Source: a virus
Lineage: Duplodnaviria; Heunggongvirae; Uroviricota; Caudoviricetes
DNA: 25,479 bases
IMG/VR virus record: IMGVR_UViG_2531839473_000011
Location: 1 to 25,479 of that record
Strand: one strand, 5' to 3'
In this document: positions 1 through 8,652 of the stretch, one piece after another
Position numbering within the stretch: position 1 is the stretch's first letter
Layout: each line of letters starts with the position of its first letter
Made by a program: the position numbers and the translations under genes
The notes under the pieces: generated by a model
Told to the model about the DNA's origin: nothing
The model's input: the letters and a program-made list of their open reading frames with translations, nothing else
The model's database searches: none

Positions 1-99
1 GCTGCTGCTGACAATGGTAATACGTTAACGGGCAATATGCAGTTCACTGCATACCGGTCCGACCCCGTACTGCTCACGCAGCTTATCCAGCAGTGGCAT
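1..99 (-). pseudogene. IS3-family transposase OrfB, 5' portion with an apparent frameshift; rest lies outside the window
   Basis: ATG at 99-97 (minus) opens [24 protein letters not shown] and hits TAA at 27-25. The remaining bases to the window edge read TYYHCQQQ only in the adjacent frame. A single-base change in the CCC run around 31-34 would join the two segments. Confidence 0.4.
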
Positions 100-424
100 A
101 TTTTTTCCAGAGGCGGTCGAACTCCGCCTTCGCAAAATAAGCGGAAGCCTGGCGAAGGATATCGTTACTGCGGCGCAGTTCACGATTTTCACGTTCCAGC
201 TCTTTCAGACGCTGACGTTCAGCGGTGGTGAGCCCACCATCACCGCTCCCGGTATCCCTCTCATGCTGGCGAACCCAGACACGCAGAGTCTCTGGCGTAC
301 AGCCAATCTTTGGAGCAATGGAACAAATTGCCGCCCATTGTGAGTCATATTCGCCCTGACTTTCCAGAACCATACGAACTGCGCGTTGACGGACTTCGGG
401 GGAAAAACGAGTATTTTTAGTCAT
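83..424 (-). CDS. IS3-family transposase OrfA (HTH DNA-binding subunit)
   Basis: 113-aa [29 protein letters not shown]...[36 protein letters not shown], recognisable as IS3-family OrfA. AGGA-containing RBS-like sequence just upstream, inside the terminal repeat. Confidence 0.85.
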
Positions 425-522: not shown

Positions 523-819
523 ATGGAAAGAACAAGTTACAGCAAACTATCACAGCGCGACGTTGATCGCGCAGAAACAGATTTACTCATCAACCTGTCA
601 ACGCTTACACAGCGCGGTCTGGCAAAGATGATTGGCTGTCATGAATCGAAGATAAGCAGAACGGACTGGAGATTTATTGCTTCGGTCTTGTGTGCTTTCG
701 GAATGGCATCAGACATCAGTCCGATTAGCAGGGCTTTTAAGTATGCGCTTGATGAAATCACAAAGAAAAAATCCCCGGCCGCCACCGAGGATTTTAAGCA
801 AATTGATATGCAATTCTGA
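523..819 (+). CDS. cII: CII-like transcriptional activator (lysogeny establishment)
   Basis: 98-aa ORF of lambda CII size with a similar C-terminus (KKKSPAATEDFKQIDMQF versus lambda KKRPAATERSEQIQMEF) and a central HTH-like segment. It sits directly upstream of the replication genes as in lambdoid phages. Confidence 0.75.
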   Translation: MERTSYSKLSQRDVDRAETDLLINLSTLTQRGLAKMIGCHESKISRTDWRFIASVLCAFGMASDISPISRAFKYALDEITKKKSPAATEDFKQIDMQF

Positions 820-1013: not shown

Positions 1014-1821
1014 GTTAGCTGATTACAGGCCTCAACTTGAGGTCGTGGAGCATCGCGTGGCAGATACCGAAGATGGTTTCATGCGCGTTGCTAACGAGAT
1101 TACCGACAGTCTGCTGATGGCTGATTTAACCGTCCGGCAGTTGAAGGTGATGCTCGCTATCATGCGCAAGACATACGGATTCAATAAGCCGATGGATCGA
1201 CTCACAAACACGCAGATAGCAGCCATGACAGGTATTCATCACACTCATGTTTGCGCTGCCAAGCGCCAGCTTATCGAGCGTAAATTCCTCATTGCTGATG
1301 GCGTGAAAATCGGAGTGAACAAGGTGGTTTCTCAGTGGATTAGCCAGGGCAGCTTAACATTAGCTAAAACAGCTAATAAAACATTAGCCAAGTCGGCTAA
1401 TGGGTATAAGCCAAGTCAGCTAAACACAAAAGACAATATACAAAAGACAATAAATACAAATACCCCCTTACCCCCTAACGGGGGCGGCGATGGGCAGGTT
1501 AAACCTGAACGTCGCAAGGCAGAACGAATCGACTACGAATCCTTCCTCAACGCCTACAACACCGAAGTCGGTGACAGGCTTCCACACGCTGTTGCGGTCA
1601 ACGAGAAACGCAAACGCCGCCTGAAGAAAATCATCCCGCAACTGAAAACGCCAAACGTGGACGGTTTCAGAGCGTATGTCAGGGCGTTTGTGCATCAGGC
1701 CAAGCCGTTTTACTTCGGAGACAACGACACGGGCTGGACGGCAGATTTTGATTACCTGCTGAGGGAAGATTCGTTAACGGGAGTACGGGAAGGGAAGTTT
1801 GCAGACAGGGGGATTGCATGA
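1000..1821 (+). CDS. O: Replication initiation protein, lambda O-like
   Basis: 273 aa. The N-terminal region ([34 protein letters not shown]) resembles the lambda O DNA-binding domain. AGGAG RBS upstream. An iteron array lies inside the gene, and a helicase gene follows. Confidence 0.8.
1340..1465. other. Candidate origin of replication: four ~18-bp iterons plus an AT-rich tract inside the O gene
   Basis: Iterons TTAGCCAGGGCAGCTTAA (1340), TTAGCTAAAACAGCTAAT (1360), TTAGCCAAGTCGGCTAAT (1384) and TAAGCCAAGTCAGCTAAA (1407), each with internal dyad symmetry and spaced 20-24 bp apart, followed by an A-rich stretch 1425-1465. This matches the lambdoid ori layout inside O. Confidence 0.6.
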
Positions 1822-3194
1822 AACAGGATATCGAAGCGAGCGTTATCGGTGGCTTGCTGATTGGTGGATTAACACCAACTGCCAGTGACGTTCTGGCAAC
1901 GCTGGAGCCGGAAGCGTTTTCAATTCCGCTCTACCGGAAAGCCTTCGAGGTTATCCGCAAGCAGGCGAGAAACAGAAACCTAATCGACGCGCTGATGGTT
2001 GCCGAGGCGTGCGGAGAGGAGCATTTCACGTCAATCCTGATGACCAGCAAAAACTGCCCGAGTGCCGCAAACCTGAAGGGATATGCCGGAATGGTCGCGG
2101 ATAACTATCACCGCCGTCTGGTGCTGGAAATCATGGATGAAATGCGTGAACCAATTCAGAGCGGAACCATCGACGCATCGAGTCAGGCGATGGATGAACT
2201 TGTAAAGCGTCTTTCAGCCATCAGAAAGCCACGTGACGAGGTTAAACCTGTACGGTTAGGGGAAATCATCACCGACTACACTGACACGCTTGACAGGCGT
2301 CTGAGGAACGGAGAAGAGTCCGATACCCTGAAGACCGGAATCGAAGAACTTGATGCCATCACCGGAGGGATGAACGCGGAAGACCTTGTGATAATCGCTG
2401 CTCGTCCTGGTATGGGGAAAACCGAACTGGCGCTGAAGATTGCCGAAGGCGTTGCAAGCCGCGTTATTCCTGGTTCTGACGTCCGGCGCGGAGTGTTGAT
2501 TTTCTCGATGGAAATGAGCGCATTGCAGATTGCAGAGCGAAGCATTGCCAACGCCGGGAGGATGCCGGTTAGCGTGCTGCGAAATCCTGCTTCGATGGAT
2601 GACGAAGGCTGGGCGCGCGTTGCTAACGGCATGAGTCAGCTTGCAGATTTGGATGTATGGGTAGTCGATGCCTCGCGGTTATCGGTCGAAGAAATACGCT
2701 CAATCGCAGAACGGCACAAACAGGAAAATCCAAACCTGTCACTCATCATGGTGGATTATCTTGGCCTGATTGAGAAGCCGAAAGCAGACCGCAACGACCT
2801 CGCAATTGCTCACATCTCCGGAAGCCTGAAGGCGATGGCGAAAGACCTGAAAACGCCAGTTATCTCCCTAAGTCAGCTTTCACGCGATGTTGAGAAGCGA
2901 CCAAACAAACGCCCGACAAACGCAGATTTGCGTGATTCAGGAAGCATTGAACAGGACGCAGACTCAATCATCATGCTCTATCGGGAAGCGGTATATGACG
3001 AGAACAGTAGCGCCGCGCCATTTGCTGAAATCATCGTGACGAAAAACCGTTTTGGCTCACTTGGTACGGTTTACCAGCGGTTCTGCAACGGACACTTTGT
3101 TGCATGTGACCAGGATGAAGCCAGACAGATTTGCACAGCATCAAATGCACCTGCTGCGCGTGGCAGACGATATGCACAAGGGGCTGACGTATGA
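1818..3194 (+). CDS. DnaB-family replicative DNA helicase (P22 gene 12-type)
   Basis: 458 aa with a Walker A motif ([10 protein letters not shown]) and the DnaB C-terminal RecA-like domain pattern. The start overlaps the O stop (ATGA). Confidence 0.85.
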
Positions 3195-3219
3195 CCATCT
3201 ACATCACTGAGCTTGTAAC

Positions 3220-3252
3220 AGGCCTGCTGGTAATCGCAGGCCTTTTTATTTG
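3220..3252 (+). terminator. Rho-independent terminator after the replication genes (position of lambda tR2)
   Basis: Perfect 8-bp stem AGGCCTGC (3220-3227) / GCAGGCCT (3236-3243) with an 8-nt loop, followed by TTTTTATTT. Confidence 0.6.
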
Positions 3253-3266
3253 GGGGAGAGTAAATC

Positions 3267-3473
3267 GTGGTTGAGTTTATGCTCGTCGCACTCAAATGCG
3301 TTGGCGTTGGATGGATTCTTCTGACGTTTTTTATTGTTCTGCATAGCTACATTCGTCTTGTGAATGACGGTAAAGACCCATGGTATACGTTGTTTGGCGC
3401 TGCATTTGTCTGGGTGATTATCGGTGTTATGCCTGTCGCTGTAGCAAAAATGGCGTGGCGTTTTGTGAGTTGA
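3267..3473 (+). CDS. Small hydrophobic protein (68 aa) with two predicted membrane-spanning segments
   Basis: GTG start at 3267 preceded by GGGGGAGAG; an alternative ATG is at 3279. Two hydrophobic stretches (GWILLTFFIVL and AAFVWVIIGVMPVAVA). It sits just downstream of the terminator. Confidence 0.5.
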   Translation: MVEFMLVALKCVGVGWILLTFFIVLHSYIRLVNDGKDPWYTLFGAAFVWVIIGVMPVAVAKMAWRFVS

Positions 3474-3490
3474 ACTGAGGGTAAGTATCG

Positions 3491-3805
3491 ATGGACGAAT
3501 CAAGAAAGCAGTTTGAGGAATACGTTGCCAAAAAATTGAGATTACCATTCGAGATGATAACCGAGGCAAGAAATGGTGATAGGTACTTTGCATTTTCAAG
3601 CATGGATATTCGTCACTCCTTAAATGAGTGGTGGGCTTTATGGCAGGCATCGCGAGCAGCTATTGAAATAACCGCGCCAAAGTTTATCGACAGCAGAGAA
3701 GCATTAGCCAAAGGGTTTACTGTTGATTATTCCAATGGCTTCGGTGATGCAATGGATGCTTATGAGGAAAACATCCGCGCTGCTGGAGTCAAAGTGAAGG
3801 AGTGA
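3491..3805 (+). CDS. Hypothetical protein (104 aa)
   Basis: Intact ORF with local GC visibly lower than its neighbours. No family recognised by eye. Confidence 0.5.
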   Translation: MDESRKQFEEYVAKKLRLPFEMITEARNGDRYFAFSSMDIRHSLNEWWALWQASRAAIEITAPKFIDSREALAKGFTVDYSNGFGDAMDAYEENIRAAGVKVKE

Positions 3806-3807
3806 GT

Positions 3808-3972
3808 ATGAGCGCATACGAAGAAATCATGTTAGCCCTGCGATTCTTTTTCGGTGTGGAAGAAGATGAAAACGTAAATGAGATTATCGGGCAAGACCAT
3901 GACCCGATAGGGACTATTGCAGCTGCACTTGACGATTACAGGAGCGTAAATGGTGAGGAAACTAACGTTTGA
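3808..3972 (+). CDS. Small acidic hypothetical protein (54 aa)
   Basis: ATG at 3808 preceded by GGAGTGAGT. The ORF overlaps the NinB start, consistent with translational coupling. Below the ORF-track cut-off. Confidence 0.35.
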   Translation: MSAYEEIMLALRFFFGVEEDENVNEIIGQDHDPIGTIAAALDDYRSVNGEETNV

Positions 3973-4393
3973 ACTAAGAAGCCCCATCCATCAGCAGAAC
4001 GCCATTCAAGCCATCCAGCAAATTCTTACAGACCCAACCAAACCAATCGTAGTAACCATTCAGGAACGCAACCGCAGCTTAGACCAGAATCGAAAGCTTT
4101 GGGCTTGCCTTGGTGACGTCTCTCGTCAGGTTGAATGGCATGGTCGCTGGCTGGATGCAGAAAGCTGGAAGTGTGTGTTTACCGCAGCATTAAAGCAGCA
4201 GGATGTTGTTCCTAACCTTGCCGGGAATGGCTTTGTGGTAATAGGCCAGTCAACCAGCAGGATGCGTGTAAGCGAATTTGCGGAGCTATTAGAGCTTATA
4301 CAGGCATTCGGTACAGAGCGTGGCGTTAAGTGGTCAGACGAAGCGCGACTGGCTCTGGAGTGGAAAGCGCGATGGGGAGACAGGGCGGCATGA
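3950..4393 (+). CDS. ninB: NinB (Orf-family recombination mediator)
   Basis: 147 aa, near-identical along its length to lambda NinB as I recall it (…[49 protein letters not shown]…). Confidence 0.9.
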
Positions 4394-4572
4394 GACGACA
4401 GCGACGAAGTATCACCGACATCATCTGCGAAAACTGCAAATACCTTCCAACGAAGCGCTCCAGAAATAAACGCAAGTCAATCCCAAAAGAATCTGACGTA
4501 AAAACCTTCAACTACACGGCTCACCTGTGGGATATCCGGTGGCTAAGAAATCGTGCGAGGAATACAAGGTGA
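4390..4572 (+). CDS. ninD: NinD-like small protein
   Basis: ATG at 4390 overlaps the NinB stop. Product [29 protein letters not shown]... matches lambda NinD. It is the later part of the 4330-4572 ORF in the track. Confidence 0.75.
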
Positions 4573-4739
4573 TTGACCCAAATCGAAGTTACGAACAAGA
4601 AAGCGTCGAGCGGGCTTTAACGTGCGCTAACTGCGGTCAGAAGCTGCATGTGCTGGAAGTTCACGTGTGTGAGCACTGCTGTGCAGAACTGATGAGCGAT
4701 CCGAATAGCTCAATGTACGAGGAAGAAGACGATGAATGA
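4527..4739 (+). CDS. ninE: NinE-like small protein
   Basis: ...[52 protein letters not shown]... matches lambda NinE. The true start is uncertain (ATG 4527 or GTG 4539). Confidence 0.7.
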
Positions 4740-8183: not shown

Positions 8184-8617
8184 GCAGAGTAACCGCGATT
8201 ATCTCCGCTCTGGTTATCTGCATCATCGTCTGCCTGTCATGGGCTGTTAATCATTACCGTGATAACGCAATCGCCTACAAAGAGCAGCGCGATAAAGCCA
8301 CGTACATCATCGCTGACATGCAGAAGCGTCAACGTGATGTAGCAGAACTCGACGCCAGATACACAAAGGAGCTTGCTGATGCTAACGCGACTATCGAAAG
8401 TCTCCGTGCTGATGTTTCTGCTGGTCGTAAGCGCCTGCAAGTCGCCGCCACCTGTGCAAAGTCAACGACCGGAGCCAGCAGCATGGGCGATGGAGAAAGC
8501 CCAAGACTTACAGCAGATGCTGAACTCAATTATTACCGTCTCCGAAGTGGAATCGACAGGATAACCGCGCAGGTTAACTACCTGCAGGAGTACATCAGGA
8601 CGCAATGCCTGAAATGA
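8180..8617 (+). CDS. Rz: Rz inner-membrane spanin (i-spanin)
   Basis: 145 aa with an N-terminal transmembrane segment and a coiled-coil periplasmic domain. Position and size match lambda Rz. Confidence 0.85.
8373..8564 (+). CDS. Rz1: Rz1 outer-membrane lipoprotein spanin, embedded in Rz in the +1 frame
   Basis: ORF fully inside Rz in another frame, with a signal-like stretch, lipobox-like VSAC and a proline-rich mature region ([14 protein letters not shown]). The true start may be an internal Met. Confidence 0.6.
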
Positions 8618-8652
8618 TCGGGCGATGAAAAACAAAAAAACAGGAGCAATAC

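Follow-up and report, generated by a model that had tools for sequence, protein, structure and literature searches.

Three small, separately mobile candidate accessory genes in the tR2–ninB slot of a P22-like lambdoid prophage

Positions 3191–3972 of the window (the whole stretch of DNA analysed, 25,479 nucleotides, IMG/VR record IMGVR_UViG_2531839473_000011) belong to a P22-like lambdoid prophage, in which they form the proximal end of the nin region. The ninA/tR2 block is followed by a slot that, to judge from sequence, carries three separately mobile small genes, ORF68, ORF104 and ORF54, and that is closed by ninB (Table 1). The three genes move independently among phages and the locus is thus an ordinary lambdoid mosaic, already catalogued, rather than a new three-part system. 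They are probably best read as three independent delayed-early accessory genes that would be transcribed solely when antitermination overrides tR2, with predicted roles in the lytic phase. Both this expression timing and the functional roles discussed below for the three genes are those that we infer.

Table 1. Features of the tR2–ninB region and its borders
Feature	Coordinates	Strand	Evidence and remarks
DnaB-type replicative helicase (P22 gp12-like)	1818..3194	+	Pfam DnaB_C 1.1e-78, DnaB 4e-13; context; stop overlaps ninA start
ninA frame, 27 codons, hydrophobic peptide	3191..3274	+	phrog_5907 E 1.1e-18; spans tR2
tR2 Rho-independent terminator	3220..3252	+	stem 3220-3227 / 3236-3243 then T-run; terminator scan
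ORF68, 68-aa predicted inner-membrane protein, two TM helices	3267..3473	+	GTG start; phrog_1165 E 1.7e-39
ORF104, 104-aa soluble protein, phiTE_015/PF26207 family	3491..3805	+	phrog_343 E 5.7e-27; pI 5.3
ORF54, 54-aa acidic three-helix protein	3808..3972	+	phrog_1603 E 1.5e-32; pI 4.05, net charge -11
ninB / orf recombination mediator	3950..4393	+	Pfam NinB 1.4e-54, phrog_72 1.7e-57; right border of variable slot

The ninA/tR2 boundary and the coding content of the slot

The homology block begins exactly at position 3191, the first letter of an ATGA (3191–3194) in which the ninA ATG overlaps the helicase stop. A ninA-type ORF has 26–27 codons, begins with MTIYITEL... and has an ATG that overlaps the stop of the upstream replication gene, and such an ORF is found in the window. 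NinA or ninA is named in the records of P22 (X78401), HK630, SPN9CC and Sf6 (gene 45), and reporter constructs show the NinA initiation site to be active (PMC4824070). The first-pass annotation had counted a 27-codon ORF (3191–3271) lying over a terminator among the parts of unknown function; the ORF is present and hydrophobic, but it is a named gene with confident homology within the known nin region. The terminator itself, proposed at the same position, was recovered by the terminator scan (MFE −15.9 kcal/mol) and identified as tR2. Its hairpin (3220–3243) has a stem of 8 bp, six of them G-C pairs, and a loop of 8 nt, and is followed by TTTTTATTT. The arrangement AGGCCTGC-N8-GCAGGCCT then TTTTTATTT is the same in the window, lambda, P22, Sf6 and HK022; hairpin, T-run and the following GGGGGAGAG are identical in these phages, and lambda tR2 is matched base for base. 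Deposited annotations read “terminator tR2” in P22, and “homology to phage lambda; tR2” and “bsq6; boundary sequence” in Sf6.

The window thus shares with the ninA-tR2 module of lambda and P22 (the Sf6 “bsq6”) the hairpin, the T-run, GGGGGAGAG, the ninA frame and the place after the replication genes. In different phages the same block is preceded by a DnaB helicase, by lambda P plus ren, or by a toprim primase, and it is known as a boundary at which phage modules recombine. The module consists of the tR2 terminator embedded in the 27-codon ninA frame, whose ATG overlaps the stop codon of whichever replication gene precedes it. Downstream the phages differ: in lambda and P22 ninB begins about 10 nt past the shared block, whereas the window, like HK022, diverges after GGGGGAGAG into ORF68, whose start is overlapped by the ninA stop over 8 nt. 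A second hairpin at 3303–3328 was considered as an internal terminator and discarded, since it is weak and fits chance (2 sites found against 1.7 expected). The Rfam scan gave no match in the region, the sole match in the window being an IS ALIL pseudoknot.

The slot does not occupy the position of lambda ren, to which the first-pass annotation had assigned it. In the lambda record ren (40280–40570) lies upstream of tR2 and ninB (40644) directly after it; the slot is downstream of tR2 and an equivalent position is therefore ruled out. When the H-19B ren protein was used as phmmer query (E ≤ 1e-5), only ORFs upstream of tR2 were labelled and none in the slot, and in H-19B-type phages ren co-occurs with ORF68 and ORF104. 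Lambda ren, whose product confers resistance to Rex exclusion, resembles the ORFs described here in being small, accessory and non-essential and in lying after the replication genes and before ninB.

The remaining description of the stretch held well: three small ORFs precede ninB, the first coding a two-helix membrane protein according to hydropathy and the third a protein that is acidic by its pI and charge, in an accessory, variable locus whose proteins belong to PHROG families of unknown function. The PHROG matches cover positions 1–68 of 68 in ORF68 and 1–53 of 54 in ORF54. GC content is indeed lower, with 42–46% over 3301–4050 against 49–56% in the helicase gene and 49–51% in ninB. All three ORFs are under purifying selection, with median dN/dS of 0.37 (ORF68), 0.61 (ORF104) and 0.16 (ORF54), and their conserved residues show synonymous codon variation; together with the PHROG matches this shows them to be genuine coding genes. 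The number of public contigs with an identical copy ranges from 69 to more than 1000 among the three (742 for the exact ORF68 sequence).

The profile searches and structure predictions proposed earlier yielded PHROG families for all ORFs and no informative fold match. Scans of the four ORFs, including the 27-codon one, against Pfam (a copy without PF26207), NCBIfam and PADLOC gave none above threshold, and the ORF104 and ORF68 profiles matched nothing meaningful among PDB sequences (best E 0.14). Sub-threshold similarities of ORF68 to T4SS_pilin (E 0.029) and to an antiporter subunit (E 0.017) were rejected as noise of hydrophobic composition. No paper was found in a literature search for phiTE_015, PF26207 and the signature peptides, and a screen of phage accessory genes (PMC12373910) does not mention nin/ninB genes.

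Occupancy of the slot and assortment of its genes

The slot is easy to sample because an invariant 38-mer marks one border and ninB the other. In an unbiased sample of phage loci that have both tR2 and ninB (n = 108) it is empty in 57, as in lambda and P22. ORF68 and ORF104 are found together in 19 loci, ORF68 only in 8 and ORF104 only in 17; ORF54 is present in one locus and a gene of the HK022 gp60 type in two. Among the distinct inserts of occupied slots ORF68 and ORF104 show no association (OR 1.28, p 0.76). Other unrelated small ORFs, coding membrane as well as soluble proteins, use the same slot. HK022 genes 58-59-60 and Sf6 genes 46–49 are unnamed small ORFs at this position that are chained alike: HK022 gp58 is the ORF68 homologue, HK022 gp59 and Sf6 gp48 are ORF104-family members, and Sf6 has genes 46 and 47 in place of ORF68. 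Their third position differs, since HK022 gp60/Sf6 gp49 is an unrelated 84-aa protein and not ORF54 (its Pfam FlbD match is barely over the cutoff, 25.5 against 24.7 bits).

A strong linkage between slot genes is that of ORF54 to ORF104, which could reflect either functional dependence or shared recombination junctions. An ORF104-family gene stands upstream in 46 of the 49 ORF54 loci, and a degenerate one in a 47th (L333), against 36 of the 108 tR2 loci (about one third). Many different ORF104 alleles precede ORF54, and in the window 2 nt separate the ORF104 stop from the ORF54 start. A two-protein unit in which ORF54 works only with an ORF104-family protein, for instance as an acidic adaptor or inhibitor on the conserved scaffold, would account for these observations, but we consider it unlikely: most ORF104 genes lack ORF54, which accompanies 1 of 36 in the unbiased sample, the ORF54 of locus L337 follows an unrelated 120-aa gene, HK022 and Sf6 hold their unrelated 84-aa protein in the same place, and the conserved ORF104 3' end acting as left recombination junction explains the linkage equally well. 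Homology between the two families was also considered and rejected, hhalign giving no relationship (probability 1.9%).

The constant neighbourhood of ninB raises another relation. Immediately before ninB, phages of Escherichia, Salmonella, Shimwellia, Erwinia, Atlantibacter, Rahnella, Pluralibacter and Yersinia carry an ORF104-family gene, and this position, kept even in distant genera, could hint at a role in recombination; in the window, moreover, ORF54 and ninB overlap by 23 nt. That ORF104, alone or with ORF54, assists the NinB/Orf recombination mediator as an accessory factor is nevertheless distinctly improbable, given that it is absent from the 57 empty tR2-ninB loci, lambda and P22 included, that the homologues of phiTE, STGO-35-1 and KP591P1 are not annotated beside ninB, that ORF104 is acidic with no recognisable nucleic-acid-binding fold, and that hypervariable inserts are unexpected in a partner of the conserved NinB.

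Expression within the PR operon and the exclusion readings

No promoter-like site was found on either strand of 2800–4600 in a scan for sigma-70-like consensus sites, which a weak or non-canonical promoter could escape, and there is hence no sign of an antisense RNA gene. No terminator separates ORF54 from ninB and ORF68 has none of its own. As read from the sequence, the three genes are translationally linked by stop and start codons that overlap or lie close, and are preceded by good Shine-Dalgarno sequences (the ORF54 ATG is 5 nt past AAGGAG). Such chaining is known from the non-essential nin genes, which ATGA overlaps join tightly (bioRxiv 10.1101/2020.10.05.325894). The chained codons and the result of the promoter scan argue that ORF68, ORF104 and ORF54 would be expressed solely from the delayed-early PR transcript, once N-type antitermination has carried transcription past tR2. 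Expression would then occur in lytic growth or upon induction and not in the quiescent lysogen.

This bears on the proposal that ORF68 is a superinfection exclusion protein expressed from the prophage, a lysogenic-conversion moron comparable to other small membrane proteins that temperate phages encode. Its two-TM inner-membrane character with an invariant second helix, the reduced GC and the occupation of this slot by several small, unrelated membrane proteins agree with the proposal. Of the traits of a moron, namely an own promoter and terminator and an atypical composition, only the composition is found, and the genes overlap their neighbours. ORF68 lies directly behind tR2 with its start overlapping the ninA stop, which makes expression in the repressed lysogen unlikely, and we regard the proposal as very doubtful.

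The first-pass annotation had also suggested that the three ORFs form one functional cassette. In such a cassette ORF68 would be a membrane toxin, abortive-infection or exclusion effector, and ORF104 and ORF54 its partners, antidotes or sensors. Adjacency, translational chaining, the reduced GC and the small hydrophobic ORF68, which resembles many toxins, speak for it. Every combination of the genes is found elsewhere, however, with ORF68 and ORF104 statistically independent among occupied slots; ORF68 is present in just 16 of the 49 ORF54 loci, and at least 80% of 3150–4000 was found in one place in only 7 of 5426 complete E. coli genomes. The cassette is thereby already largely refuted, and a very small chance is left to it. 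A prophage-expressed toxin, abortive-infection or exclusion role is likewise disfavoured, as the genes come after the terminator in a PR operon that is repressed, no promoter-like site turned up in the scan, and PADLOC-DB v2 has no family for ORF27, ORF68, ORF104 or ORF54 at E ≤ 1. Nor was the signature of a toxin-antitoxin pair seen (a promoter of its own or an antisense RNA, with toxin and antidote genes always occurring together), ORF68 being found with or without ORF104 and ORF54. Finally, that the ORFs are non-functional filler from illegitimate recombination at a module junction, as the highly mosaic locus, dispensable in many phages, might suggest, is hardly credible and is refuted already by the selection seen on each of the three, namely dN/dS of 0.16–0.61 and synonymous variation at invariant residues, to which the good Shine-Dalgarno sequences, confident AF2 models and the width of the ORF104 family (1118 clusters) can be added.

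Predicted roles and the ORF104 family

Each of ORF68, ORF104 and ORF54 would work alone as a non-essential accessory factor of the lytic phase, probably in host takeover, counter-defence or exclusion; an anti-defence or lytic-phase exclusion role is conceivable. Since the structure searches were uninformative, the binding roles proposed here rest solely on context and conservation patterns.

ORF68 has two hydrophobic segments (19-residue Kyte-Doolittle means up to 2.35 and 2.38), a pI of 9.0 and a predicted N-in/C-in topology with the short periplasmic loop VNDGKD. Its homologues form 61 clusters, from Escherichia or Salmonella only, in which W16, G35, K36, W49, G53, P56 and the C-terminal AKMAW-F are invariant. 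The protein most plausibly binds an inner-membrane component, of the host or of an incoming phage, through the invariant second helix, and such binding may lead to early exclusion or neutralise a membrane-acting defence. Lytic phages have small membrane exclusion proteins, e.g., T4 Imm, that are located in the inner membrane and made early in infection; ORF68 may be likened to them in size, location and predicted timing, a likeness not taken to mean homology. For ORF54 the most plausible role is that of a small acidic binding protein or a mimic; the gene is as a rule inherited along with the ORF104 3' end.

ORF104 belongs to the phiTE_015/PF26207 family, which comprises 1118 representative clusters at E ≤ 1e-3 and includes, beside Sf6 gp48 and HK022 gp59, mEp235_047. 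Its alignment to phiTE_015 spans 88 columns (hhalign probability 99%, E 6e-18); the two are of similar size and share SRxQFEEW, WxxWxASRAAIE and a C-terminal xAG-K. The RefSeq family name is given to a neighbouring allele and not to that of the window. PF26207 is precomputed on all 120 ORF104 homologues among the matches listed; the Pfam-A copy used here has no PF26207 model and returned nothing for ORF104 or for the alleles that RefSeq names phiTE_015. The AF2 model of ORF104 (pLDDT 78.9) has no fold match, and its search against BFVD retrieved uncharacterised proteins only.

The protein has a scaffold conserved at residues 1–10, 51–60 and 95–104 and two hypervariable inserts, which in the family are shuffled combinatorially (34 × 26 insert types), a mildly notable feature. 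The BLAST breakpoints at 3520, 3667 and 3803 fall inside the conserved motifs. Homologues in non-lambdoid phages are found in early clusters of small genes, one of them adjoining a “restriction alleviation” gene. ORF104 most plausibly is a binding protein whose fixed scaffold would show two exchangeable variable surfaces to polymorphic targets. A wider proposal, which we put forward as speculative and rather unlikely, is that the phiTE_015/PF26207 family is a widespread phage scaffold for counter-defence or recognition, with ORF54 as an optional acidic co-factor and the membrane hairpins of the slot as a parallel set for early exclusion or against abortive infection.

The tR2 terminator and ninA are textbook lambda features, and ORF68, ORF104 and ORF54 are already on record as hypothetical proteins, often with identical sequence, from thousands of E. 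coli and Salmonella prophages. The useful outcome is in this respect negative, in that the segment does not merit pursuit as a defence or toxin cassette of three components. Between tR2 and ninB there is a well-defined hotspot of small genes, accessory and, by prediction, of the lytic phase, and the ORF104 family, with its combinatorial shuffling of inserts, would be a sensible choice for systematic anti-defence screening. Were the wider proposal true, PF26207 would have a core of about 35 residues carrying at least 34 × 26 insert types recombined at conserved linkers, and the swapping of inserts could change the target specificity of the phage towards polymorphic host immunity proteins.

Small ORFs behind the tR2 terminator

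Re-reading of the sequence upholds the first-pass annotation in its description of a terminator, a 27-codon ORF, three small ORFs and low GC. The GC content is 42-46% across 3301-4050 vs 49-56% in the flanking genes.

Features of the tR2-ninB region and of the left end of the stretch
Feature	Position	Strand	Description
ALIL frameshift pseudoknot	29-143		Rfam RF01497, 103.5 bits; belongs to IS3-family orfA, likewise on the - strand
IS3-family transposase orfA	83-424	-	Pfam HTH_Tnp_1
cII	523-819		phage gene
27-codon ORF (ninA)	3191-3274		start ATGA overlapping the DnaB-type helicase stop codon
Terminator (tR2)	3220-3252		8-bp stem (6 G-C pairs), 8-nt loop, T-run; terminator scan
ORF68	3267-3473		GTG start; 8-nt overlap with 27-codon ORF; plausible Shine-Dalgarno
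Second hairpin	3303-3328		inside ORF68; 9 pairs, 3 G-C only, then TTTTTATTG
ORF104	3491-3805		plausible Shine-Dalgarno
ORF54	3808-3972		AAGGAG then ATG 5 nt on; plausible Shine-Dalgarno
ninB	3950-4393		Pfam NinB 1.4e-54; 23-nt overlap with ORF54

The window shares its terminator hairpin (MFE -15.9 kcal/mol), the T-run and the GGGGGAGAG behind it without any difference with P22, Sf6, HK022 and lambda (NC_001416, in the ren-ninB interval). The block is annotated as 'ninA protein' and 'terminator tR2' in the P22 record X78401, and in Sf6 as gene 45 'similar to phage 21 NinA', 'terminator, homology to phage lambda; tR2' and 'bsq6; boundary sequence'; the name NinA is also given to it in HK630 and SPN9CC. 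The 27-codon ORF matches phrog_5907 (E 1.1e-18). By sequence identity and these deposited annotations, the terminator is tR2 and this ORF the frame already named ninA. The second hairpin is probably a chance occurrence rather than a terminator (2 sites found vs 1.7 expected in shuffles).

In a tR2 reporter study the NinA start is treated as a real initiation site that is 'not weak', translation from it reduces tR2 efficiency by only ~10%, and termination is repressed by ribosomes that stop ~27 nt or less from the hairpin (PMC4824070). The helicase stop codon of the window lies 25 nt before the hairpin and, therefore, termination at tR2 may be tuned by upstream translation. Among loci aligned to 3191-3274, an alternative ninA version has a different hairpin (GGGCTA...TAGCCC) with a T-run and codes a 26-residue peptide. 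Another version, found at 5 loci, lacks an obvious terminator hairpin but keeps an open 34-codon hydrophobic frame, which hints that the ninA peptide, and not the terminator alone, may be under selection. The ninA frame and ORF68 make up one continuous frame in some Salmonella prophages; the predicted protein of 93-94 aa with three hydrophobic segments (aligned proteins P0132 and P0137, the latter on 47 contigs) may be a genuine fusion or an artefact of gene calling.

Gene content between tR2 and ninB

DNA similarity to other phages detected by BLAST starts exactly at 3191. The ninA/tR2 block is found behind lambda P and ren (H-19B), behind a DnaB helicase (mEp235, HK022) and behind a toprim primase (E. 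coli prophages), three contexts confirmed by the architecture tables of 85 and then 120 further loci. On these comparisons the block is a module boundary. The interval following it had been equated with the position of lambda ren. This does not hold: lambda ren (40280-40570) is upstream of tR2, with ninB (40644) directly after the terminator, while H-19B-type phages carry ren plus, after tR2, ORF68 and ORF104. Note that in the H-19B record (1998, AF034975; locus L001, 2504-3535) a stretch of ~1 kb from ren to 'nin orf-58-A' carries no annotation; ninA/tR2, a homologue of ORF68 and a gene of the ORF104 family lie within it (DNA match; tblastn match 8311-8631).

The occupancy of the interval was determined in an unbiased sample of IMG/VR contigs with the exact 38-nt tR2 sequence, in which 108 loci have ninB downstream. 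The interval is empty, as in lambda and P22, in 57/108 loci; it holds ORF68 with an ORF104-family gene in 19, ORF68 only in 8, an ORF104-family gene only in 17, and other small ORFs in the remaining 7. ORF54 is present in one of these loci and the HK022 gp60 type in two. No association of ORF68 with ORF104 was detected among the distinct inserts of this sample (odds ratio 1.28, p 0.76), and each replication-module type precedes every occupancy state, the only combination missing being a toprim primase followed by ORF68 alone. A single place holds at least 80% of 3150-4000 in 7/5426 complete E. coli genomes and in 0/50,697 phage records; some part of it is present in 2047 genomes. The three ORFs are thus not the proposed cassette, ORF68 and ORF104 being independent and the exact triple rare.

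ORF54 is the exception to this free assortment. An ORF104-family gene lies upstream in 46 of 49 ORF54 loci, and a degenerate one in locus L333; in locus L337 the preceding gene is unrelated. ORF68 is found in only 16 of the 49.

Other, unrelated small genes use the interval too (including Sf6 genes 46-47); their products include a 66-aa winged-helix-like protein and three or more further small membrane proteins. The membrane proteins, found in loci L006-L348, include a 63-aa two-helix and a 60-aa multi-helix protein; further ones are a 90-aa N-terminally anchored protein and a 108-aa Sf6 gp46-like protein. The 66-aa protein is of the Sf6 gp47 type. An 84-aa protein replaces ORF54 in HK022 (gene 60; locus L004, 3097-3351) and Sf6 (gene 49 type); this protein has a Pfam FlbD match barely over the gathering cutoff (E 9.7e-06, 25.5 vs 24.7 bits). 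The helicase-tR2-ORF68-ORF104 block occurs also on the E. coli plasmid NZ_CP158430.1 (178,896 bp), which may be a phage-plasmid or carry an integrated prophage. Plasmids account for 20/3046 matching places.

Protein families of ORF68, ORF104 and ORF54

The three products have full-length matches to PHROG families of unknown function: 1165 for ORF68 (1.7e-39), 343 for ORF104 (5.7e-27) and 1603 for ORF54 (1.5e-32). Their median pairwise dN/dS is 0.37, 0.61 and 0.16, respectively, the ORF104 value being inflated because of non-homologous inserts, and several synonymous codons are used at invariant residues, e.g., S, R, I and E of the ORF104 central motif. Identical proteins, all labelled hypothetical, are found on 742 (ORF68), 69 (ORF104) and at least 1000 (ORF54) contigs. 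On these data, all three are real genes.

ORF68 (pI 9.0) has two hydrophobic stretches. Its homologues, all ~68 aa long, form 61 clusters at 90% identity, and the named ones all belong to Escherichia or Salmonella. In their alignment an invariant G-K-D loop joins two hydrophobic helices, of which the second is nearly invariant together with the carboxyl terminus (WVIIGVMPVAVAKMAWRF). The positive-inside rule suggests an N-in/C-in topology. Searches of PDB, Pfam, NCBIfam and PADLOC gave no relatives. ORF54 is acidic (pI 4.05, net charge -11).

ORF104 belongs to a large family (1118 representative clusters at E<=1e-3). PF26207 is assigned to all its listed homologues, a neighbouring allele is named 'phiTE_015 family protein' in RefSeq, and phiTE_015 of Pectobacterium phage phiTE matches the ORF104 profile with 99% hhalign probability (E 6e-18). 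Members among the 150 matches listed are stand-alone proteins of 56-161 aa. The family reaches as far as Erwinia, Pantoea, Rahnella and Yersinia, phages of Klebsiella, and phiTE, a virulent phage. In non-lambdoid phages its gene is found within early small-gene clusters without an annotated ninB beside it, in one case adjoining a 'restriction alleviation' gene. The alignment features three conserved segments (MDESRKQFE, WxxWQASRAAIEI and IRAAGxKVKE) separated by two non-homologous inserts, of which at least 34 (first) and 26 (second) types are freely combined among 196 parsed sequences. The BLAST breakpoints relative to related phages (3520, 3667 and 3803) lie inside the conserved segments.

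Expression and proposed roles

The prophage is P22-like, as its CII, O, helicase, NinB/E/F, P22 portal, P22 coat and tailspike families show, and the genes belong to its PR early-right operon. The IS3-family orfA is located ~100 bp upstream of cII; an insertion sequence therefore seems to interrupt the immunity/cro side, and the prophage is possibly defective.

ORF68, ORF104 and ORF54 directly follow tR2, with overlaps linking them to ninA on one side and ninB on the other; no sigma-70-like promoter was detected by a scan of both strands. They would be delayed-early genes, made only upon antitermination read-through of tR2, with expression in lytic growth and not in the lysogen. Such expression argues against a role as toxin, abortive-infection or exclusion factor made in the lysogen, and favours accessory functions in the lytic phase; the first-pass interpretation is thus supported in part. 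The non-essential, tightly chained nature of the nin region fits such functions (bioRxiv 10.1101/2020.10.05.325894). The three would be independent accessory proteins. More speculatively, ORF68 would act at the inner membrane via its invariant second helix, ORF104 would be a binding scaffold with exchangeable variable surfaces, and ORF54 a small acidic binding protein, in most cases passed on together with the 3' end of ORF104. Taken together, the identity, expression logic and independence of the three genes are well supported and likely correct; their specific molecular roles are speculative.

The combinatorial insert shuffling, the sole feature for which no description was found, is a property of the phiTE_015 family and not peculiar to the window. 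Earlier deposits or publications already cover tR2, ninA and the boundary sequence, as well as the occurrence of small unnamed ORFs in the tR2-ninB interval of HK022 and Sf6, and the three protein families are all in PHROGs and one in Pfam. The segment is not a new kind of system; it is ordinary and already catalogued.
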